The notes beneath the pieces were generated by a model that ran no database searches, was not told the DNA's origin, and worked only from the letters and a program-made list of their open reading frames with translations. A stretch of 15,728 bases of DNA, taken from Planctomycetales bacterium (GTDB lineage Bacteria > 4484-113). The translations under genes and the position numbers were made by a program. Location: assembly GCA_037445915.1 (NCBI GenBank), contig JBBIJQ010000046.1, positions 1 through 15,728 of the forward strand, written 5' to 3'. Positions 3,927-15,037 of this stretch are shown piece after piece (position 1 is the first letter of the stretch; each line of letters opens with the position of its first letter).

Positions 3927-6900
3927 TCACTCCGCCTTGACAGGCACAAGTTGAATAAGCACTTCCAGTCCTTCAATTTCAGATGGATACACGTTTGGAA
4001 AATCGTCAGCGAGGCTGCTGTCTTCCGCAAAGTCAACCGTAAGCGTTTCACCAGCTATTACGGCAGCGTAGTTCAACACTGCCGAGCGGACTGGCTCATC
4101 AACGGTAAACTTCAGCGAGATGCGCTGCTCATAATCCAGCGCGAGGTTCTTGCGCTGCGTCTGCACACGGTTGATGAACTCGCGGCACAAGCCCTCTTCG
4201 CGCAGCTCCGGCGTTATTACTAAGTCTAGCACAAGAAGCAAGTTGCCATCGCGCTGCGCTACCGTGCCTTGGCGCTCTATAATGCGGATGTCAAGGTCGT
4301 CCGCCGTAAGCTCGTAATTCTCGCCGCCCGCGGCAAGCGAAAAGCTACCGGATTCGCCTAGCTGATTTACAAGTGCAGACGCATTTGCCGAAGCAAGCGC
4401 TTTTTGGACTGCTCCAATCGCCTTGCCCAGCCGCGGGCCCAGGACGCCGAAGTTGGGCTTGACTTGGAAGTTTACGTAGTCTTCTGCGCGCTTAGCCCAG
4501 CGAATCGCTTTGATGTTAAGCTCTTCGCGCACGATGTTGTGGTAAGGCTCAATTGCCGACGGCAGCTTCGTGTCGTTGGTAACGAGGATGATCTCGCGAA
4601 GCGGCTGTCGCACTTTTAACTTGGACTGGTTGCGCGCCGCATGGCCGAGCTTTACCACGCGGAGCACGGCGTCCATCCCTTCCTCAAGCTCCGGGTCAGC
4701 GATGCTTTCGTCTGCTTCAGGATAATCGCATAGGTGAACGCTGACAGGCGACTCCGCATCTATCGCGCGCACCAGCTTCTCGTGAAGCTCGTCGGAAATG
4801 AATGGGGTAAATGGCGCAATCAGCTTGGAGAGGCCGCAAAGGATGCCATAGAGCGTGTGGTATGCGCTCCATTTCTCGCCGTTCTTTTGGCTTTGCCAGA
4901 AACGGCGGCGGCTCCGGCGGACGTACCAATTGCTGAGGATATCAAGGAATACCTCAATCGCGCGCGCAGCTTCAGTGGCGCGGAAGGCATCCAAGTTCTC
5001 TATCACGTTTCTGATTAGCTGGTTGTACTTAATAAGAATCCAGCGGTCAAGCAGCGGCCGTTCTTTCCATGGCAGCGCAGGCTGAGCAGGGTCATAGTCG
5101 TCTATGTTCGCGTAGATGGTGAAAAACGAGTACACGTTCCAAAGCGGGATGAGAAACTTTTGCAGCGAGCTGACGACGGCAGGTTCGGAATAGCGCGTGT
5201 TAACCCAAGGCGCGTTAGCGCTGAGGAAATACCACCTAAACGCGTCAGCGCCCTGGCGGTTGATGACATTCCACGGGTCAGCCACATTGCCCATAGACTT
5301 GCTCATCTTGCGGCCTTTCTCATCTTGTATGTGGCCAAGCACGACGCAGGTTTTGTATGCCGGGGTGTCCTTTACCATAGTGGCTATTGTATGCAGCGTA
5401 TAGAACCACCCGCGCGTCTGGTCTATTGCCTCGCTGATGAAATCGGCAGGAAACTGCCCGCCGCCGTCAATGTCGTCTTTGTGCTCAAAGGGGTAGTGGT
5501 GCTGGGCGAAGGGCATTGAGCCACTATCAAACCAGCAGTCTATGACATGCGGCACCCTTTGCATCGCGCCACCGCAAGCGCACTTCCAAGTCATCTCGTC
5601 AACGAACGGGCGGTGCGGGTTGAACTGTGCGGAATTGTAGAGGTCGTCAGCCTTGAATTCCGCCAATCCTTGAAGCTCAGCAAAAGAGCCAATGCAACGG
5701 GTGTTGCCGCATGAGCCGCATTCCCAGATGGGCAGCGGAGTGCCCCAGTAGCGGTTGCGGGAGAGCGCCCAATCAACCACGCCTTCCAGCCATTGGCCGA
5801 AACGCCCGTTGCGGATGTGCTCAGGCACCCAGTTTATCTTTTCATTGTTAGAGAGAAGCTGGTCGCGGATTGCGGTCGTGCGGATGAACCAGGACGGAAA
5901 TGCATAATAGAGCAGGGGTGTATCGCAACGCCAGCAGAACGGATACGCGTGGATATAGTTTGTGATGTGGAACAGCAGCCCTCGGTCGCGCAAGTCCAGC
6001 GTTATTTCAGCGTCAGCTTCCTTCACATTGCGCCCGGCCCACTTGGCAACTTCGGGGACGAAGTTCCCGCGCTCGTCAACCGCGCACACAAACGGCAGGT
6101 CGTTTGCTAAACCGACCTGGTAGTCATCTTCACCGAAGGCAGGCGCAATGTGGACTATGCCTGAGCCATAATCCATCGTCACGAACTTGCCGGTTATTAC
6201 ATAGTGTGCGCGCTTGTCTACCGGCAGATACCAAAAGAGCGGCTCGTAATTAATGTTTGCTAAGTCAGAACCGCGGAAAGCAGCGGTTATAGGCTCTTCG
6301 CCCAAGCCTGTGGCCGCGAGAAGCTCACGGGCGAGAATTATGTGCTCTCCATCGTGGAAGACCGCGACATACTCGGCATCTGGGTTCACCGCCAGCGCGA
6401 CATTGGATATCAGCGTCCACGGTGTAGTCGTCCAAACCAAAAAGTAGGTTCTCCCTGTGGCAAGATCTCCGCTAAGGTCATCCATCGCGTCCTTGACGCG
6501 AAACTTGACGAAGACGCTTGGGTCTTTGGTGTCTACGTAGTTCTGCGCGACTTCATGGGATGAGAGCGGCGTTCCGCAGCGGTAGCAGTAGGGGACAATC
6601 TTGTGGCCCCGGTAAATTAGCTGCTTGTCCCACATCTGGCGGAGCAGCCACCACACGGTTTCTATGTACTTGTTCGTGTAGGTGAAATAGGCTTCATCGT
6701 AGTTGAGCCAGAAGCCAATGCGGTTGCTTATGCGCCGCCACTCTTTCTCGTAGCGCTGCACCGAGGCTAAGCAACGCTCGTTGAAAGCAGCTATGCCGTA
6801 CTTTTCAATGTCAGCCTTGCCGGTAAAGCCAAGCTCTTTTTCAACCTCAATCTCAACCGGCAGCCCGTGCGTGTCCCAGCCTGCTTTGCGCGCCACGTGG

Positions 6901-7136
6901 TAGCCACGCATGGTCTTGTAGCGCGGGAACAGGTCTTTCATCACTCGGGTCAGCACGTGGCCGGGGTGCGGTAAGGCATTGGCTGTCGGCGGGCCTTCGT
7001 AGAATACGAAGTTGCCTTTTGGCGAAGAGCGCTGCAGCGACTTGCCAAACACATCTTCCGCTTCCCAGTAGCGAAGGATGCGCTCCTCCATTTCCGGGAA
7101 GTTATATGCCGTATCAGCTTTTTCAAATCTTCCCAT
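3927..7136 (-). CDS. ileS: Isoleucyl-tRNA synthetase, type 2 (IleRS2)
   Basis: FYEGPPTANALPHPGH (HIGH equivalent, 6957-6968), GWDTHGLPVE, WTTTPWTL editing motif, DWALSRNRYWGTP, KMSKS (5295-5309), SNWYVRRSR. Type-2-style C-terminus (EGLCREFINRVQ..RK) without the type-1 zinc finger. Confidence 0.97.
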   Translation of the reverse strand: MGRFEKADTAYNFPEMEERILRYWEAEDVFGKSLQRSSPKGNFVFYEGPPTANALPHPGHVLTRVMKDLFPRYKTMRGYHVARKAGWDTHGLPVEIEVEKELGFTGKADIEKYGIAAFNERCLASVQRYEKEWRRISNRIGFWLNYDEAYFTYTNKYIETVWWLLRQMWDKQLIYRGHKIVPYCYRCGTPLSSHEVAQNYVDTKDPSVFVKFRVKDAMDDLSGDLATGRTYFLVWTTTPWTLISNVALAVNPDAEYVAVFHDGEHIILARELLAATGLGEEPITAAFRGSDLANINYEPLFWYLPVDKRAHYVITGKFVTMDYGSGIVHIAPAFGEDDYQVGLANDLPFVCAVDERGNFVPEVAKWAGRNVKEADAEITLDLRDRGLLFHITNYIHAYPFCWRCDTPLLYYAFPSWFIRTTAIRDQLLSNNEKINWVPEHIRNGRFGQWLEGVVDWALSRNRYWGTPLPIWECGSCGNTRCIGSFAELQGLAEFKADDLYNSAQFNPHRPFVDEMTWKCACGGAMQRVPHVIDCWFDSGSMPFAQHHYPFEHKDDIDGGGQFPADFISEAIDQTRGWFYTLHTIATMVKDTPAYKTCVVLGHIQDEKGRKMSKSMGNVADPWNVINRQGADAFRWYFLSANAPWVNTRYSEPAVVSSLQKFLIPLWNVYSFFTIYANIDDYDPAQPALPWKERPLLDRWILIKYNQLIRNVIENLDAFRATEAARAIEVFLDILSNWYVRRSRRRFWQSQKNGEKWSAYHTLYGILCGLSKLIAPFTPFISDELHEKLVRAIDAESPVSVHLCDYPEADESIADPELEEGMDAVLRVVKLGHAARNQSKLKVRQPLREIILVTNDTKLPSAIEPYHNIVREELNIKAIRWAKRAEDYVNFQVKPNFGVLGPRLGKAIGAVQKALASANASALVNQLGESGSFSLAAGGENYELTADDLDIRIIERQGTVAQRDGNLLLVLDLVITPELREEGLCREFINRVQTQRKNLALDYEQRISLKFTVDEPVRSAVLNYAAVIAGETLTVDFAEDSSLADDFPNVYPSEIEGLEVLIQLVPVKAE

Positions 7137-7168
7137 TACACATCACCTGTAAACGAAGCCATTACCAG

Positions 7169-7201
7169 AAAAGAAAAAGCCCTCCTCTTGTGAGAAGGGC
7201 T
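7169..7201 (-). terminator. Intrinsic terminator (attenuator 3:4 hairpin) in the ileS leader
   Basis: Minus strand reads AGCCCTTCTC-ACAA-GAGGAGGGCT followed by TTTTCTTTT: a 10-bp stem with one G.U pair and a U-tract, about 30 nt upstream of the ileS ATG. Confidence 0.85.
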
Positions 7202-7226
7202 GGGTAAACCTCTAATGCGTGTTAGC

Positions 7227-7286
7227 CTACCCCGCCCAGGGCGGGATAATAATGGACGCCGTGCATTCTACAAGTATCAAAAGCAT
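7227..7286 (-). CDS. Putative ileS attenuator leader peptide MLLILVECTASIIIPPWAG (19 aa)
   Basis: ATG at 7286-7284 to TAG at 7229-7227. Tandem ATT ATT ATC codons at 7253-7245 overlap hairpin 1:2, and the ORF lies upstream of a terminator preceding ileS. Confidence 0.7.
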   Translation of the reverse strand: MLLILVECTASIIIPPWAG

Positions 7287-7308
7287 CGTCTGATCTCGTA
7301 AGGCTTAC

Positions 7309-7391
7309 TGCCGAGGGCCGGACTCGAACCGGCATGGGGTTATACCCGGGGGATTTTAAGTCCCCTGCGTCTGCCATTTCGCCACCTCGGC
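7309..7391 (-). tRNA. tRNA-Leu (anticodon TAA), CCA not encoded
   Basis: GCCGAGG/CCTCGGC acceptor stem, discriminator A, anticodon arm GGGGA-CTTAAAA-TCCCC, long variable arm GGG-TATAA-CCC, T arm GCCGG-TTCGAGT-CCGGC. Confidence 0.96.
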
Positions 7392-7412
7392 CCCTGGCAG
7401 CAAGCCAGATTG

Positions 7413-7910
7413 TTATGGGCGGCCGTGTAGAGCGCGTTTCTTGCGCTTCTTCTTGCCTCCTGCACGTTTAGCTTCCAGGTTGCGTTTCAAATCTACCAAG
7501 TTCTCCTCGCTCATACGCTTGAAGACCTTGAGCATTTGGTCGAAGTCGTAATTAGCCTTTCGCAGCTCTTCTTCCAAGTTGAAGTCAAACTGCGGGGGCT
7601 CGGATGCGAATACTTCAGGCGCGGGCATAGGGAGTTCATCGCGTTCTTCAACCCTAGGAGGCCTAGTGTAATCAAGGCCAGAGGCCTGCTTGAGCGACAA
7701 CTCAATGCGCCCGTCCTCTTTGATGGAGAGGACCTTGATCTTCACCTTCTGATTAGGTTTTACCTTCTCGCGGATGTCCTTAACGAATTCGTCACTGATT
7801 TCGCTGATGTGAATGAGGCCTTTCTGGCCCGGACCGAGCCATACAAAGGCGCCAAAATCACGCACTTCAGCAATGCGCCCCTGGACCACATCGCCAGTGG
7901 TCAAGTCCAT
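7413..7910 (-). CDS. S1 RNA-binding domain protein (YabR/YugI-like)
   Basis: S1 signature GDVVQGRI..VRDFGAFV..GLIHISEIS..IELSLK. C-terminal FDQMLKVFKRMSEENLVDLKRNLEAKRAGG resembles the YabR tail, followed by a basic KKKRKKR. SD AAGGAGGT 7 nt before ATG7910 favours that start over GTG7919. Confidence 0.88.
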   Translation of the reverse strand: MDLTTGDVVQGRIAEVRDFGAFVWLGPGQKGLIHISEISDEFVKDIREKVKPNQKVKIKVLSIKEDGRIELSLKQASGLDYTRPPRVEERDELPMPAPEVFASEPPQFDFNLEEELRKANYDFDQMLKVFKRMSEENLVDLKRNLEAKRAGGKKKRKKRALHGRP

Positions 7911-7965
7911 GGAGCACACCTCCTTTTATCGCAAGAGTATCGCGGGACACCCCGCGTAGCACTTT

Positions 7966-7994
7966 AGTCTATCTTGGCAGCGCAGATAAGTCAA
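7966..7994 (-). promoter_or_regulatory. Sigma70-type promoter TTGACT-N17-TAGACT upstream of the S1 gene
   Basis: -35 at 7994-7989 and -10 at 7971-7966 with an exact 17-nt spacer, in the tgt/S1 intergenic gap. Confidence 0.7.
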
Positions 7995-8020
7995 GCACTT
8001 GCAGAGCCGGCAAACCCGCC

Positions 8021-9145
8021 CTAGAGCCTGCGCTTCAAGCTATCCAGCTTCATTTTGAGGAACACGTGCAGCTTGCCGCCCATAATCGCAGCCCTAAGCT
8101 CGCCTACCAGAGAATGGTAGAAATGCAGGTTGTGATGGGTAAGCATCACCCCGGCGGTAATCTCGTCGGCCATAACAAGATGCCGCAGGAAAGCCCGGCT
8201 GTGACGACTGCACATCTCGCAGCCGCACTTTGCAGAAACAGGCGAAGTATCCAGCTCAAACTTCTTTAGCTTCAGGTTAAGAATGCCTTCCCATGTGTAG
8301 GCGACTCCCCGCCGCGCCATTCTAGTGGGCAGGACGCAGTCAAAGAAGTCGTAGCCCATCTGCACCGAGAGAGCAATGTCTTCCGGCGTGCCCAGCCCCA
8401 TCAAATAGCGCGGCTTGCTAGGAGGGAGCCTGTCGGCGCAAAATGCCGCTGTCCTCGCGAACTGCTCACGGGTTTCCCCCACGGCCAGCCCGCCGACGGC
8501 GATGCCTGGGAACCCAAGCCCACCAACAACATCCAAACTCCTCTCCCGCAGTTCAAGGTCTGTGCCGCCCTGGACAATCCCGAATAGGCGCGTCTTTGTC
8601 CGCGCCCCACCTAGGCTTCGCCAATGCTCGTAAGCGCGCTTCGCCCATACGTGCGTGATGGCCATGTCAGCTTCCACTTGCTTGCGCTCGGATGGATGAT
8701 GGCTGCATATGTCAAGCATCATAGCTATGTCGCTTTTGAAGCCGATTTGCGCATCCATCACGTCTTCCGGCGTGAGGAAGAACTGGCGGCCGCTTTCGTA
8801 ATCGCGGAATTTCACGCCGTCCATGGTCACTTTGCGAAGTGGAGACAGGCTCATTATCTGGAAGCCGCCGGAGTCCGTAAGTATGCTGCCTCGCCAGCCG
8901 GTAAACTTCCTCAATCCACCAAGTTCCTTGACAGCGGCAAGCCCAGGGCGGCAAAGAAGGTGGTAGGTGTTCATCAGGATGTGCGGGAATCCGATGCGCT
9001 CAAGGCTGTCAAAGCTGCCATCCTTTACCATCCCGCGCGTGGCGACAGGCTGGAAGTAAGGTGTTGGGACTTGCACGCCGTTCAGCGACATCAAACCCGC
9101 ACGGGCATTACCATCAACGGCTTCAACTGTGAAAAACTTAGCCAT
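8021..9145 (-). CDS. tgt: tRNA-guanine(34) transglycosylase
   Basis: NTYHL, DSGGFQ, LDIC, GIVQGG, GLAVGE, PRYLMGLG, FDCVLPTR and the Zn site CGCEMC...HNL. Confidence 0.96.
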   Translation of the reverse strand: MAKFFTVEAVDGNARAGLMSLNGVQVPTPYFQPVATRGMVKDGSFDSLERIGFPHILMNTYHLLCRPGLAAVKELGGLRKFTGWRGSILTDSGGFQIMSLSPLRKVTMDGVKFRDYESGRQFFLTPEDVMDAQIGFKSDIAMMLDICSHHPSERKQVEADMAITHVWAKRAYEHWRSLGGARTKTRLFGIVQGGTDLELRERSLDVVGGLGFPGIAVGGLAVGETREQFARTAAFCADRLPPSKPRYLMGLGTPEDIALSVQMGYDFFDCVLPTRMARRGVAYTWEGILNLKLKKFELDTSPVSAKCGCEMCSRHSRAFLRHLVMADEITAGVMLTHHNLHFYHSLVGELRAAIMGGKLHVFLKMKLDSLKRRL

Positions 9146-14950: not shown

Positions 14951-15023
14951 TGCGGGGTGGAGCGGCCGGTAGCTCGCCAGGCTCATAACCTGGAGGTCGC
15001 AGGTTCGAATCCTGCCCCCGCAA
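14951..15023 (+). tRNA. tRNA-Met (CAT), initiator (fMet)-type, CCA not encoded
   Basis: TGCGGGG/CCCCGCA acceptor stem with G2:C71, C3:G70 and A73; D-stem GAGC/GCTC with A11:U24; anticodon arm CCAGG-CTCATAA-CCTGG; T arm GCAGG-TTCGAAT-CCTGC. Confidence 0.93.
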
Positions 15024-15037
15024 CTTAGGCCGCTCAT

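Follow-up and report, generated by a model that had tools for sequence, protein, structure and literature searches.

The window, by which is meant the whole 15,728-nucleotide stretch of DNA analysed, carries on its minus strand a series of genes that leads into ileS, the gene for isoleucyl-tRNA synthetase (IleRS). The genes that lie upstream of the tRNA-Leu(UAA) gene all act on RNA, encoding an RluD-type pseudouridine synthase, a queuine tRNA-ribosyltransferase and a protein with an S1 domain, and this run of tRNA- and RNA-related genes (10247-7413) ends in tRNA-Leu(UAA) and ileS. The S1-domain gene stops 21 nt upstream of tRNA-Leu(UAA), and a basic C-terminal tail on the ORF that precedes the tRNA gene is also seen in four other genomes of the phylum (G011, G016, G017 and G023). 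The start codon of ileS is the ATG at 7136, with AGGTGA upstream of it. The peptidase M28 gene that adjoins the other end of ileS may be co-transcribed with it, in which case it would come under the same attenuator. The features are collected in Table 1.

Table 1. Features in and around the ileS leader (window coordinates), with the T-box loci of other phyla in the last row (coordinates of each locus)
Feature	Position	Strand	Basis or remark
RluD-type pseudouridine synthase	10247-9138	minus	domain match
Queuine tRNA-ribosyltransferase	9145-8021	minus	domain match
Promoter-like site TTGACT-17 nt-TAGACT	7994-7966	minus	9/12 consensus positions
S1 RNA-binding-domain protein gene, 168 aa	7919-7413	minus	ORF; Pfam S1, E 4e-18
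tRNA-Leu, anticodon UAA	7391-7309	minus	ARAGORN; Rfam tRNA 57.8 bits
Leader ORF, 19 codons, MLLILVECTASIIIPPWAG + TAG	7286-7227	minus	sequence reading
Three putative regulatory Ile codons, ATT ATT ATC	7253-7245	minus	last one within 5' arm of hairpin 1:2
Hairpin 1:2, 10 pairs, 3-nt loop CTG, -15.2 kcal/mol	7249-7227	minus	folding
Segment 2, 5' strand of proposed antiterminator	7237-7224	minus	13 pairs with 7210-7197
Segment 3, 3' strand of proposed antiterminator	7210-7197	minus	7200-7197 shared with terminator 5' arm
Intrinsic terminator 3:4 and U tract	7201-7169	minus	stem 7201-7178, U tract 7177-7169
ileS, 1069 aa, putatively regulated gene	7136-3927	minus	tRNA-synt_1, Anticodon_1, DUF5915
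Peptidase M28 gene	3926-2940	minus	begins right at ileS end (3927)
tRNA-Met (CAT)	14951-15024	plus	tRNA gene search
T-boxes in loci L039, L040, L048, L053, L055, L062, L066, L070, L079, L080, L085, L089	about 850-1166 in each

A first-pass annotation of the DNA had placed an isoleucine-sensing leader-peptide attenuator upstream of ileS, and the 19-codon ORF, its isoleucine codons, hairpin 1:2, the terminator and the 2:3 pairing are all found where that annotation put them. Absent from it was the tRNA-Leu(UAA) gene, the 3' end of which is just 22 nt upstream of the leader ATG. This gene occupies 7391-7309, which makes the putative attenuator part of its 3' trailer. The leader ORF extends from an ATG at 7286-7284 to a TAG at 7229-7227, an arrangement in which the stop codon sits within the 3' arm of hairpin 1:2 and the last isoleucine codon within its 5' arm. 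The strands of the proposed antiterminator form their 13 pairs around one G/A mismatch, and the terminator stem is made up of 10 pairs, six of which are G-C, closed by a 4-nt loop and followed by TTTTCTTTT. When stretches of 144 and 96 nt were folded, z-scores of -4.52 and -4.53 were obtained, and none of 200 shuffled sequences was as stable.

The translation signals of the leader vary. Reading of the sequence reveals no clear Shine-Dalgarno motif before the leader ATG of the window, just GAGA, and the motif is likewise weak in several relatives and good in the leaders of G002, G005 and G007. In G005 and in loci L160 and L163, where 11 nt separate the tRNA from the ATG, a TATAAT overlaps the start codon (..GAGAGGGTATAATGG..). 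This could represent a Shine-Dalgarno sequence with an AT-rich spacer, or it could be a -10 box with transcription starting downstream of the first ATG; further in-frame ATG codons follow in these three leaders. The N-terminal part of the peptide carries a run of Leu, Ile and Val residues, for which an additional role in sensing branched-chain amino acids had been proposed in the first-pass annotation. This proposal is unsupported because the run is confined to G000 and G001, and the leader peptides of other genera begin quite differently (MHRKPA.., MEAALLAK.. and MCTLRER..).

The phylum is represented by 24 species genomes in the collection examined (G000-G023). The N-terminal part of IleRS was detected in 20 of these and was not detected in G003, G008, G018 and G020, which are 77-85% complete. 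For 18 of the 20 loci ARAGORN placed a tRNA-Leu(UAA) gene in the 600 nt that precede ileS, and a nineteenth locus, that of G001, is also linked to the tRNA, its contig starting inside the tRNA gene, leaving G004 as the sole locus that truly lacks it. Families f1, to which the window belongs, and f2 together make up one order, and each of their 16 ileS loci has the same leader design. It consists of an ATG-started ORF of 13-23 codons in which two or three in-frame isoleucine codons come shortly before a GC hairpin; the stop codon lies in the 3' arm of that hairpin, and a second hairpin follows. Fourteen of the 16 leaders were detected automatically and those of G009 and G012 by hand. A strict terminator follows the leader in 14 of the 16, with G002 and G015 having a hairpin with a poor U tract. 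The four ileS loci of a further family, f3 (G019, G021, G022 and G023), have no leader, and their tRNA gene is directly followed by its own terminator.

The design extends beyond the genome collection. A scan of metagenomes with a search pattern that fixed the hairpin and terminator arms only returned seven matches, and all seven have the tRNA, an in-frame isoleucine-rich ORF and ileS downstream. Four of them represent new lineages; MCTLRERQEAIIIAPPGAG and MDEDAAVYAVLTNSVIIIAPRRAG are examples of their peptides. Conservation of the ORF and of its isoleucine codons, on which the earlier proposal hung, thus holds in 16 of 16 ileS loci of f1 and f2 and in seven of seven metagenome matches. The geometry is equally constant, the stop codon falling in the hairpin 3' arm in every one of the 16 genomes and seven metagenome sequences with 0-5 nt between the end of the last isoleucine codon and the GC core of the 5' arm. 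The stop codon itself is TAG or TGA in the genomes, and all three stop codons occur at this hairpin position because two of the new metagenome lineages use TAA. With the metagenome sequences included the leaders range from 13 to 24 codons, and outside the C-terminus the peptide is not conserved.

The frame that contains the isoleucine codons and the stop is open from an ATG in 16 of 16 sequences, against three and one of 16 for the other two frames, counts that overstate independence and significance because the 16 relatives are kin and represent about eight genera. Shuffled sequences would be expected to hold about 0.2 ATG-open frames each. The frame is kept although the stretch from the tRNA to the isoleucine codons defies alignment from one genus to another. 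Across 13 lineages isoleucine accounts for 36 of 156 in-frame codons, compared with one and three in the other frames, and each lineage has two or three isoleucine codons among the last 12 codons of its leader; the genomic background is 5.4% isoleucine in long ORFs. That the ORF encodes a small functional peptide, with its place before ileS being incidental, is scarcely credible on these data. The C-terminal residues are indeed alike across lineages (..II.P..G), but they are dictated by the GC hairpin that they are encoded in, the remainder of the peptide, in ORFs of 13 to 24 codons, is not conserved, and the sole enriched residue is the cognate of the downstream synthetase.

The position of the element raises the question of whether it belongs to the tRNA or to ileS. 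The 3' external transcribed spacers of tRNAs can act as small RNAs, as with the E. coli leuZ trailer, and the present element resembles that trailer in coming directly after a tRNA-Leu(UAA) gene and in ending in the terminator of that unit. Accordingly, the hairpins could be read as the 3' trailer and terminator of an S1-tRNA-Leu(UAA) unit, perhaps releasing a trailer-derived small RNA, with the ORF untranslated and no sensing of isoleucine. The start of the element so close to the tRNA is in keeping with this, as are the lack of any promoter-like site between tRNA and ORF, the weak, sub-threshold Rfam matches to four small RNA families and the tRNA of f3 (G019, G021, G022 and G023) with its immediate terminator; a terminator is in any case equally expected where a tRNA transcription unit ends. 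Against it stand the ATG-open frame, the in-frame isoleucine codons and the fixed position of the stop, all of which are kept as the N-terminus drifts, and a conserved hairpin-plus-ORF architecture of about 110 nt, for which a plain terminator would have no need. A translatable frame with the cognate codons of the next gene also sets the element apart from the leuZ trailer.

In G004 the two genes have been separated. No tRNA gene lies upstream of ileS here, yet leader (MLVWNDVKERRISRFSIIMTRAG) and terminator are both retained, and ahead of the leader is a promoter-like TTGCAA-17-TATAAT, in agreement with the consensus at 10 of 12 positions. The tRNA-Leu(UAA) gene of G004 is on a separate contig, with an unrelated trailer and no leader. 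Because G004 separates the two in this way, the element can be said to travel with ileS and not with the tRNA, and an explanation in which it is a trailer or terminator that moves with the tRNA fails. The reading as a trailer of the tRNA unit is for these reasons held to be decidedly unlikely. The f3 loci share the gene order but have a plain terminator right after the tRNA, a hint that the amino-acid sensor may have arisen from a tRNA terminator, co-opted when a leader ORF and a competing helix were inserted ahead of it, downstream of the tRNA.

How the leader comes to be transcribed bears on the same question. A scan of 6800-8100 yielded a single sigma-70-like match, the site upstream of the S1-domain gene given in Table 1, which is weak in that 0.7 such matches would be expected by chance, and no promoter-like site was found between tRNA-Leu and the leader ORF. 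A start of transcription downstream of the leader ATG, from the TAGAAT at 7270-7265, had been considered as a means by which the leader would be bypassed; the scan has no match there and, on our own reading, no TTGACA-like hexamer lies 16-18 nt upstream. The gap between tRNA and ATG is 11-79 nt in the other genomes. In the family of the window it is too short for a usual promoter, and transcription of the leader and ileS through the tRNA gene is therefore most likely, with the terminator doubling as the end of the tRNA unit. A more far-reaching suggestion, tentative and one that we would sooner doubt than accept, is that ileS has no promoter of its own in this order and is expressed solely by isoleucine-dependent read-through of the S1/tRNA-Leu(UAA) terminator, the 5' end of the leader mRNA then being generated when the tRNA is processed at its 3' end, 10-30 nt upstream of the ATG in the family of the window.

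The element can be compared to well-known leader-peptide attenuators. The E. coli pheST genes are controlled by an attenuator with the leader peptide PheM, encoded by pheM, and the trp, his, thr, leu and ilv leaders belong to the same class. As in these systems, there is a short ORF in which the cognate codon is enriched, together with four segments able to form helices 1:2, 2:3 and 3:4 and a terminator before the structural gene, and as with pheST the gene under control is that of an aminoacyl-tRNA synthetase. Unlike them, the amino acid is isoleucine and the gene ileS, the host belongs to an uncultured phylum, and the element is located in a tRNA-Leu trailer, no promoter belonging to it having been detected; the 2:3 helix of the window overlaps the terminator by just four of 10 bases, and no Rfam leader family is matched.

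On this model transcription would enter from upstream, most likely by way of the genes for the S1-domain protein and tRNA-Leu(UAA), and the leader ORF would then be translated. When charged isoleucine tRNA is plentiful the ribosome would reach the TAG in the 3' arm of hairpin 1:2 and cover segment 2, and where no ribosome is loaded hairpin 1:2 would form. Either state, segment 2 covered or 1:2 formed, would allow the terminator 3:4 to form and transcription to end at around 7170, a stop that would also terminate the S1-tRNA-Leu transcript. When charged isoleucine tRNA is scarce the ribosome would stall on ATT ATT ATC and cover segment 1, and the freed segment 2 would pair with segment 3, hinder the base of the terminator stem and so permit more read-through into ileS. 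The anatomy, the conservation, the frame-specific enrichment in isoleucine and the linkage to ileS all support the isoleucine-sensing attenuator that was first proposed, and the element is likely to be a ribosome-mediated attenuator of the leader-peptide type, adjusting transcription of ileS to the amount of charged tRNA-Ile available. Less confidence is attached to the classical 2:3 helix as the working antiterminator in the window.

Support for the individual helices is uneven. In the alignment of f1, hairpin 1:2 and the terminator jointly show pairing in 98.6% of cells, three pairs are changed on both sides and the score is reached by 15 of 500 shuffles. When four metagenome rows are added, 98.2% of cells pair and six of 500 shuffles reach the score, an alignment in which several columns are fixed by the search pattern. 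The hairpin stem reads CCCGCC/GGCGGG in one family and GCCCCC/GGGGGC in the other, with its register shifted and the codon frame kept. For the antiterminator 2:3, 92.8% of cells pair in f1, with a single pair altered in both its bases and a score that is reached by 41 of 500 shuffles. The f2 alignment (A3) is too far out of register and was excluded from the pair counts. Duplex energies were compared instead because the extension of the 2:3 helix outside its two GC stems varies from genus to genus and pairs in different registers, making column covariation uninformative. Duplexes of segment 2 with segment 3 come to -24.1 kcal/mol for cognate partners versus -17.5 kcal/mol for non-cognate ones, the cognate duplex being the best in its row for 10 of 13 lineages. 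With shortened segments, from which most of the spacer is omitted, the respective values are -17.6 and -13.3 kcal/mol. The cognate mean was reached by none of 20000 permutations, with full and shortened segments alike, a count that overstates its significance because the relatives are not independent.

Competing folds were compared with a ribosome masking different parts of the leader. All 16 full-length sequences form the complete terminator when left unmasked or with the ribosome at the stop codon. With the ribosome stalled on the isoleucine codons it is kept in 13 and lost in three, and loss occurs under this mask alone. The 2:3 helix prevails in the full-length folds of two f2 sequences, G013 and G015, and partly in that of G007 from f1. 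In f2 the antiterminator occupies 6-9 of the 9-11 bases of the terminator arm. In the window, with an isoleucine codon masked, it occupies four of the 10 bases of the terminator 5' arm, and the fold that retains the terminator is the more stable by 8.2 kcal/mol, with an estimated barrier of 2.6 kcal/mol. For the window and f1 as a whole the terminated fold is more stable by about 6.5 to 13 kcal/mol, and the estimated path barriers are 1.8-5.3 kcal/mol. The fold comparison that the first-pass annotation had proposed therefore goes in the direction of the model, with the terminator lost in three of 16, but the equilibrium fold of the window keeps its terminator. Its description of a 2:3 helix that sequesters the 5' arm of the terminator is similarly right about the 13 pairs and overstated as to their reach, the overlap being confined to those four bases. 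Because the equilibrium fold keeps the terminator even when segment 1 is masked, antitermination in the window is something that we infer only, and on the modelled energies it must, if real, be kinetic.

These energies also bring in the possibility that the ORF is translated and senses Ile-tRNA but operates without a 2:3 antiterminator, the position of the ribosome affecting termination, the access of Rho or the decay of the mRNA by another route. Freed segment 2 could, for example, form a 9-pair helix that abuts the terminator, or the effect could arise through coupling between ribosome and polymerase. The small overlap in the family of the window, the win of the terminated fold at equilibrium and the weak covariation of 2:3 within the family would all fit such a mechanism. 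It is nonetheless considered unlikely, given that the 2:3 helix of the sister family covers most of the terminator arm and wins the fold in G013 and G015 and that cognate 2:3 pairing beats non-cognate pairing.

The T-box binds the uncharged tRNA directly and does not require translation, and it is the form of control usually described for the synthetase genes of Firmicutes, Actinobacteria and Chloroflexi-type bacteria. A T-box could have accounted for the structure at the present locus, as the first-pass annotation had allowed. An Rfam search of 6800-7700 returned no T-box up to E = 10 and no leader family; the tRNA alone reaches its family threshold, and the four small RNA families are far below theirs. 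The phylum's 20 ileS loci are likewise free of T-boxes, and by these Rfam searches of the window and the 20 loci a T-box or other known RNA family is ruled out. The element is like the ileS T-boxes (RF00230) in the gene that it precedes, in responding, on the proposed model, to the charging of tRNA-Ile and, where these are transcriptional, in its terminator/antiterminator output, but differs in being a presumably translated leader of isoleucine codons with no T-box match. T-boxes of ileS have been described in Actinobacteria (PMC1262725).

Outside the phylum the picture is reversed. Among the scanned ileS loci of other phyla, which include the nearest homologues of the gene, 12 of 16 contain a T-box at or above the Rfam threshold, all 12 being titled Anaerolineae, Chloroflexia or relatives, and no T-box match was obtained in L024, L033, L047 and L063. 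Short ORFs with a recurring '..CGII..' upstream of ileS in other phyla were considered as leader peptides and rejected, as they lie inside T-boxes. In the ileS upstream regions of 20 genomes from other phyla no isoleucine ORF ending before a terminator was found, and the same 20 regions gave no Rfam matches. Among 80 named ileS loci the leader design is present only in the three closest (L021-L023, corresponding to the G001, G002 and G006 lineages). This phylum probably uses a translated isoleucine-codon leader in place of a T-box, and the same regulatory problem would then be solved by a different device.

The element appears to be unique within its genome. No second copy of it was found, and a scan of 142 terminator-like sites for a short ORF with at least three of one residue before a strict terminator and a gene returned ileS and one serine-rich match; the latter precedes an ORF of 141 aa and was taken for chance. 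A looser scan took in 85 terminator-like sites before ORFs of at least 100 aa, of which 15 besides ileS, with an ORF of at least 400 aa, were inspected. These 15 include a class II synthetase, for which no leader with Gly or His runs was seen.

A translated leader before ileS has a precedent in Caulobacter crescentus, where CCNA_03934, termed the 'ileS leader CDS', comprises 45 nt with its stop codon, lies 78 nt upstream of ileS and was found by ribosome profiling (PMC4117421). In that paper CCNA_03934 serves as a negative control only. It comes from an alphaproteobacterium and is comparable to the present leader in its small size and its place before ileS. Besides this leader CDS, no isoleucine leader-peptide attenuator of ileS was found in full-text searches of the literature, and a survey of attenuators of synthetase genes made in 2010 by Lopatovskaya, Seliverstov and Lyubetsky (cited in PMC4833913) may list such cases. 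The locus is a neat rather than a surprising case, because the mechanism is textbook and the translated ileS leader has its precedent in Caulobacter. Judged by its sequence, the element is very probably a conserved isoleucine leader-peptide attenuator of ileS that shares the terminator of a tRNA-Leu gene and belongs to a well-known class. It corrects the annotation by an unannotated 19-codon ORF and its attenuator, and offers a handle on gene regulation in a lineage known from metagenomes only. It also supplies a natural series on the overlap between antiterminator and terminator, ranging from the plain terminator of f3, through the 4-base overlap of f1 and the 6-9-base overlap of f2, to G004 with a putative promoter of its own.

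Two further observations concern the ileS loci themselves. In G009 (L011) and G012 (L012) the terminator of the attenuator is separated from ileS by about 280-300 nt. The spacer of G009 contains GC-rich repeated words and long predicted helices, and that of L012 includes a run of N. In G017 a second, partial match to the N-terminal part of IleRS, a 187-aa open frame, is found at the start of a short contig (C117:16-555) and is probably an assembly duplicate.
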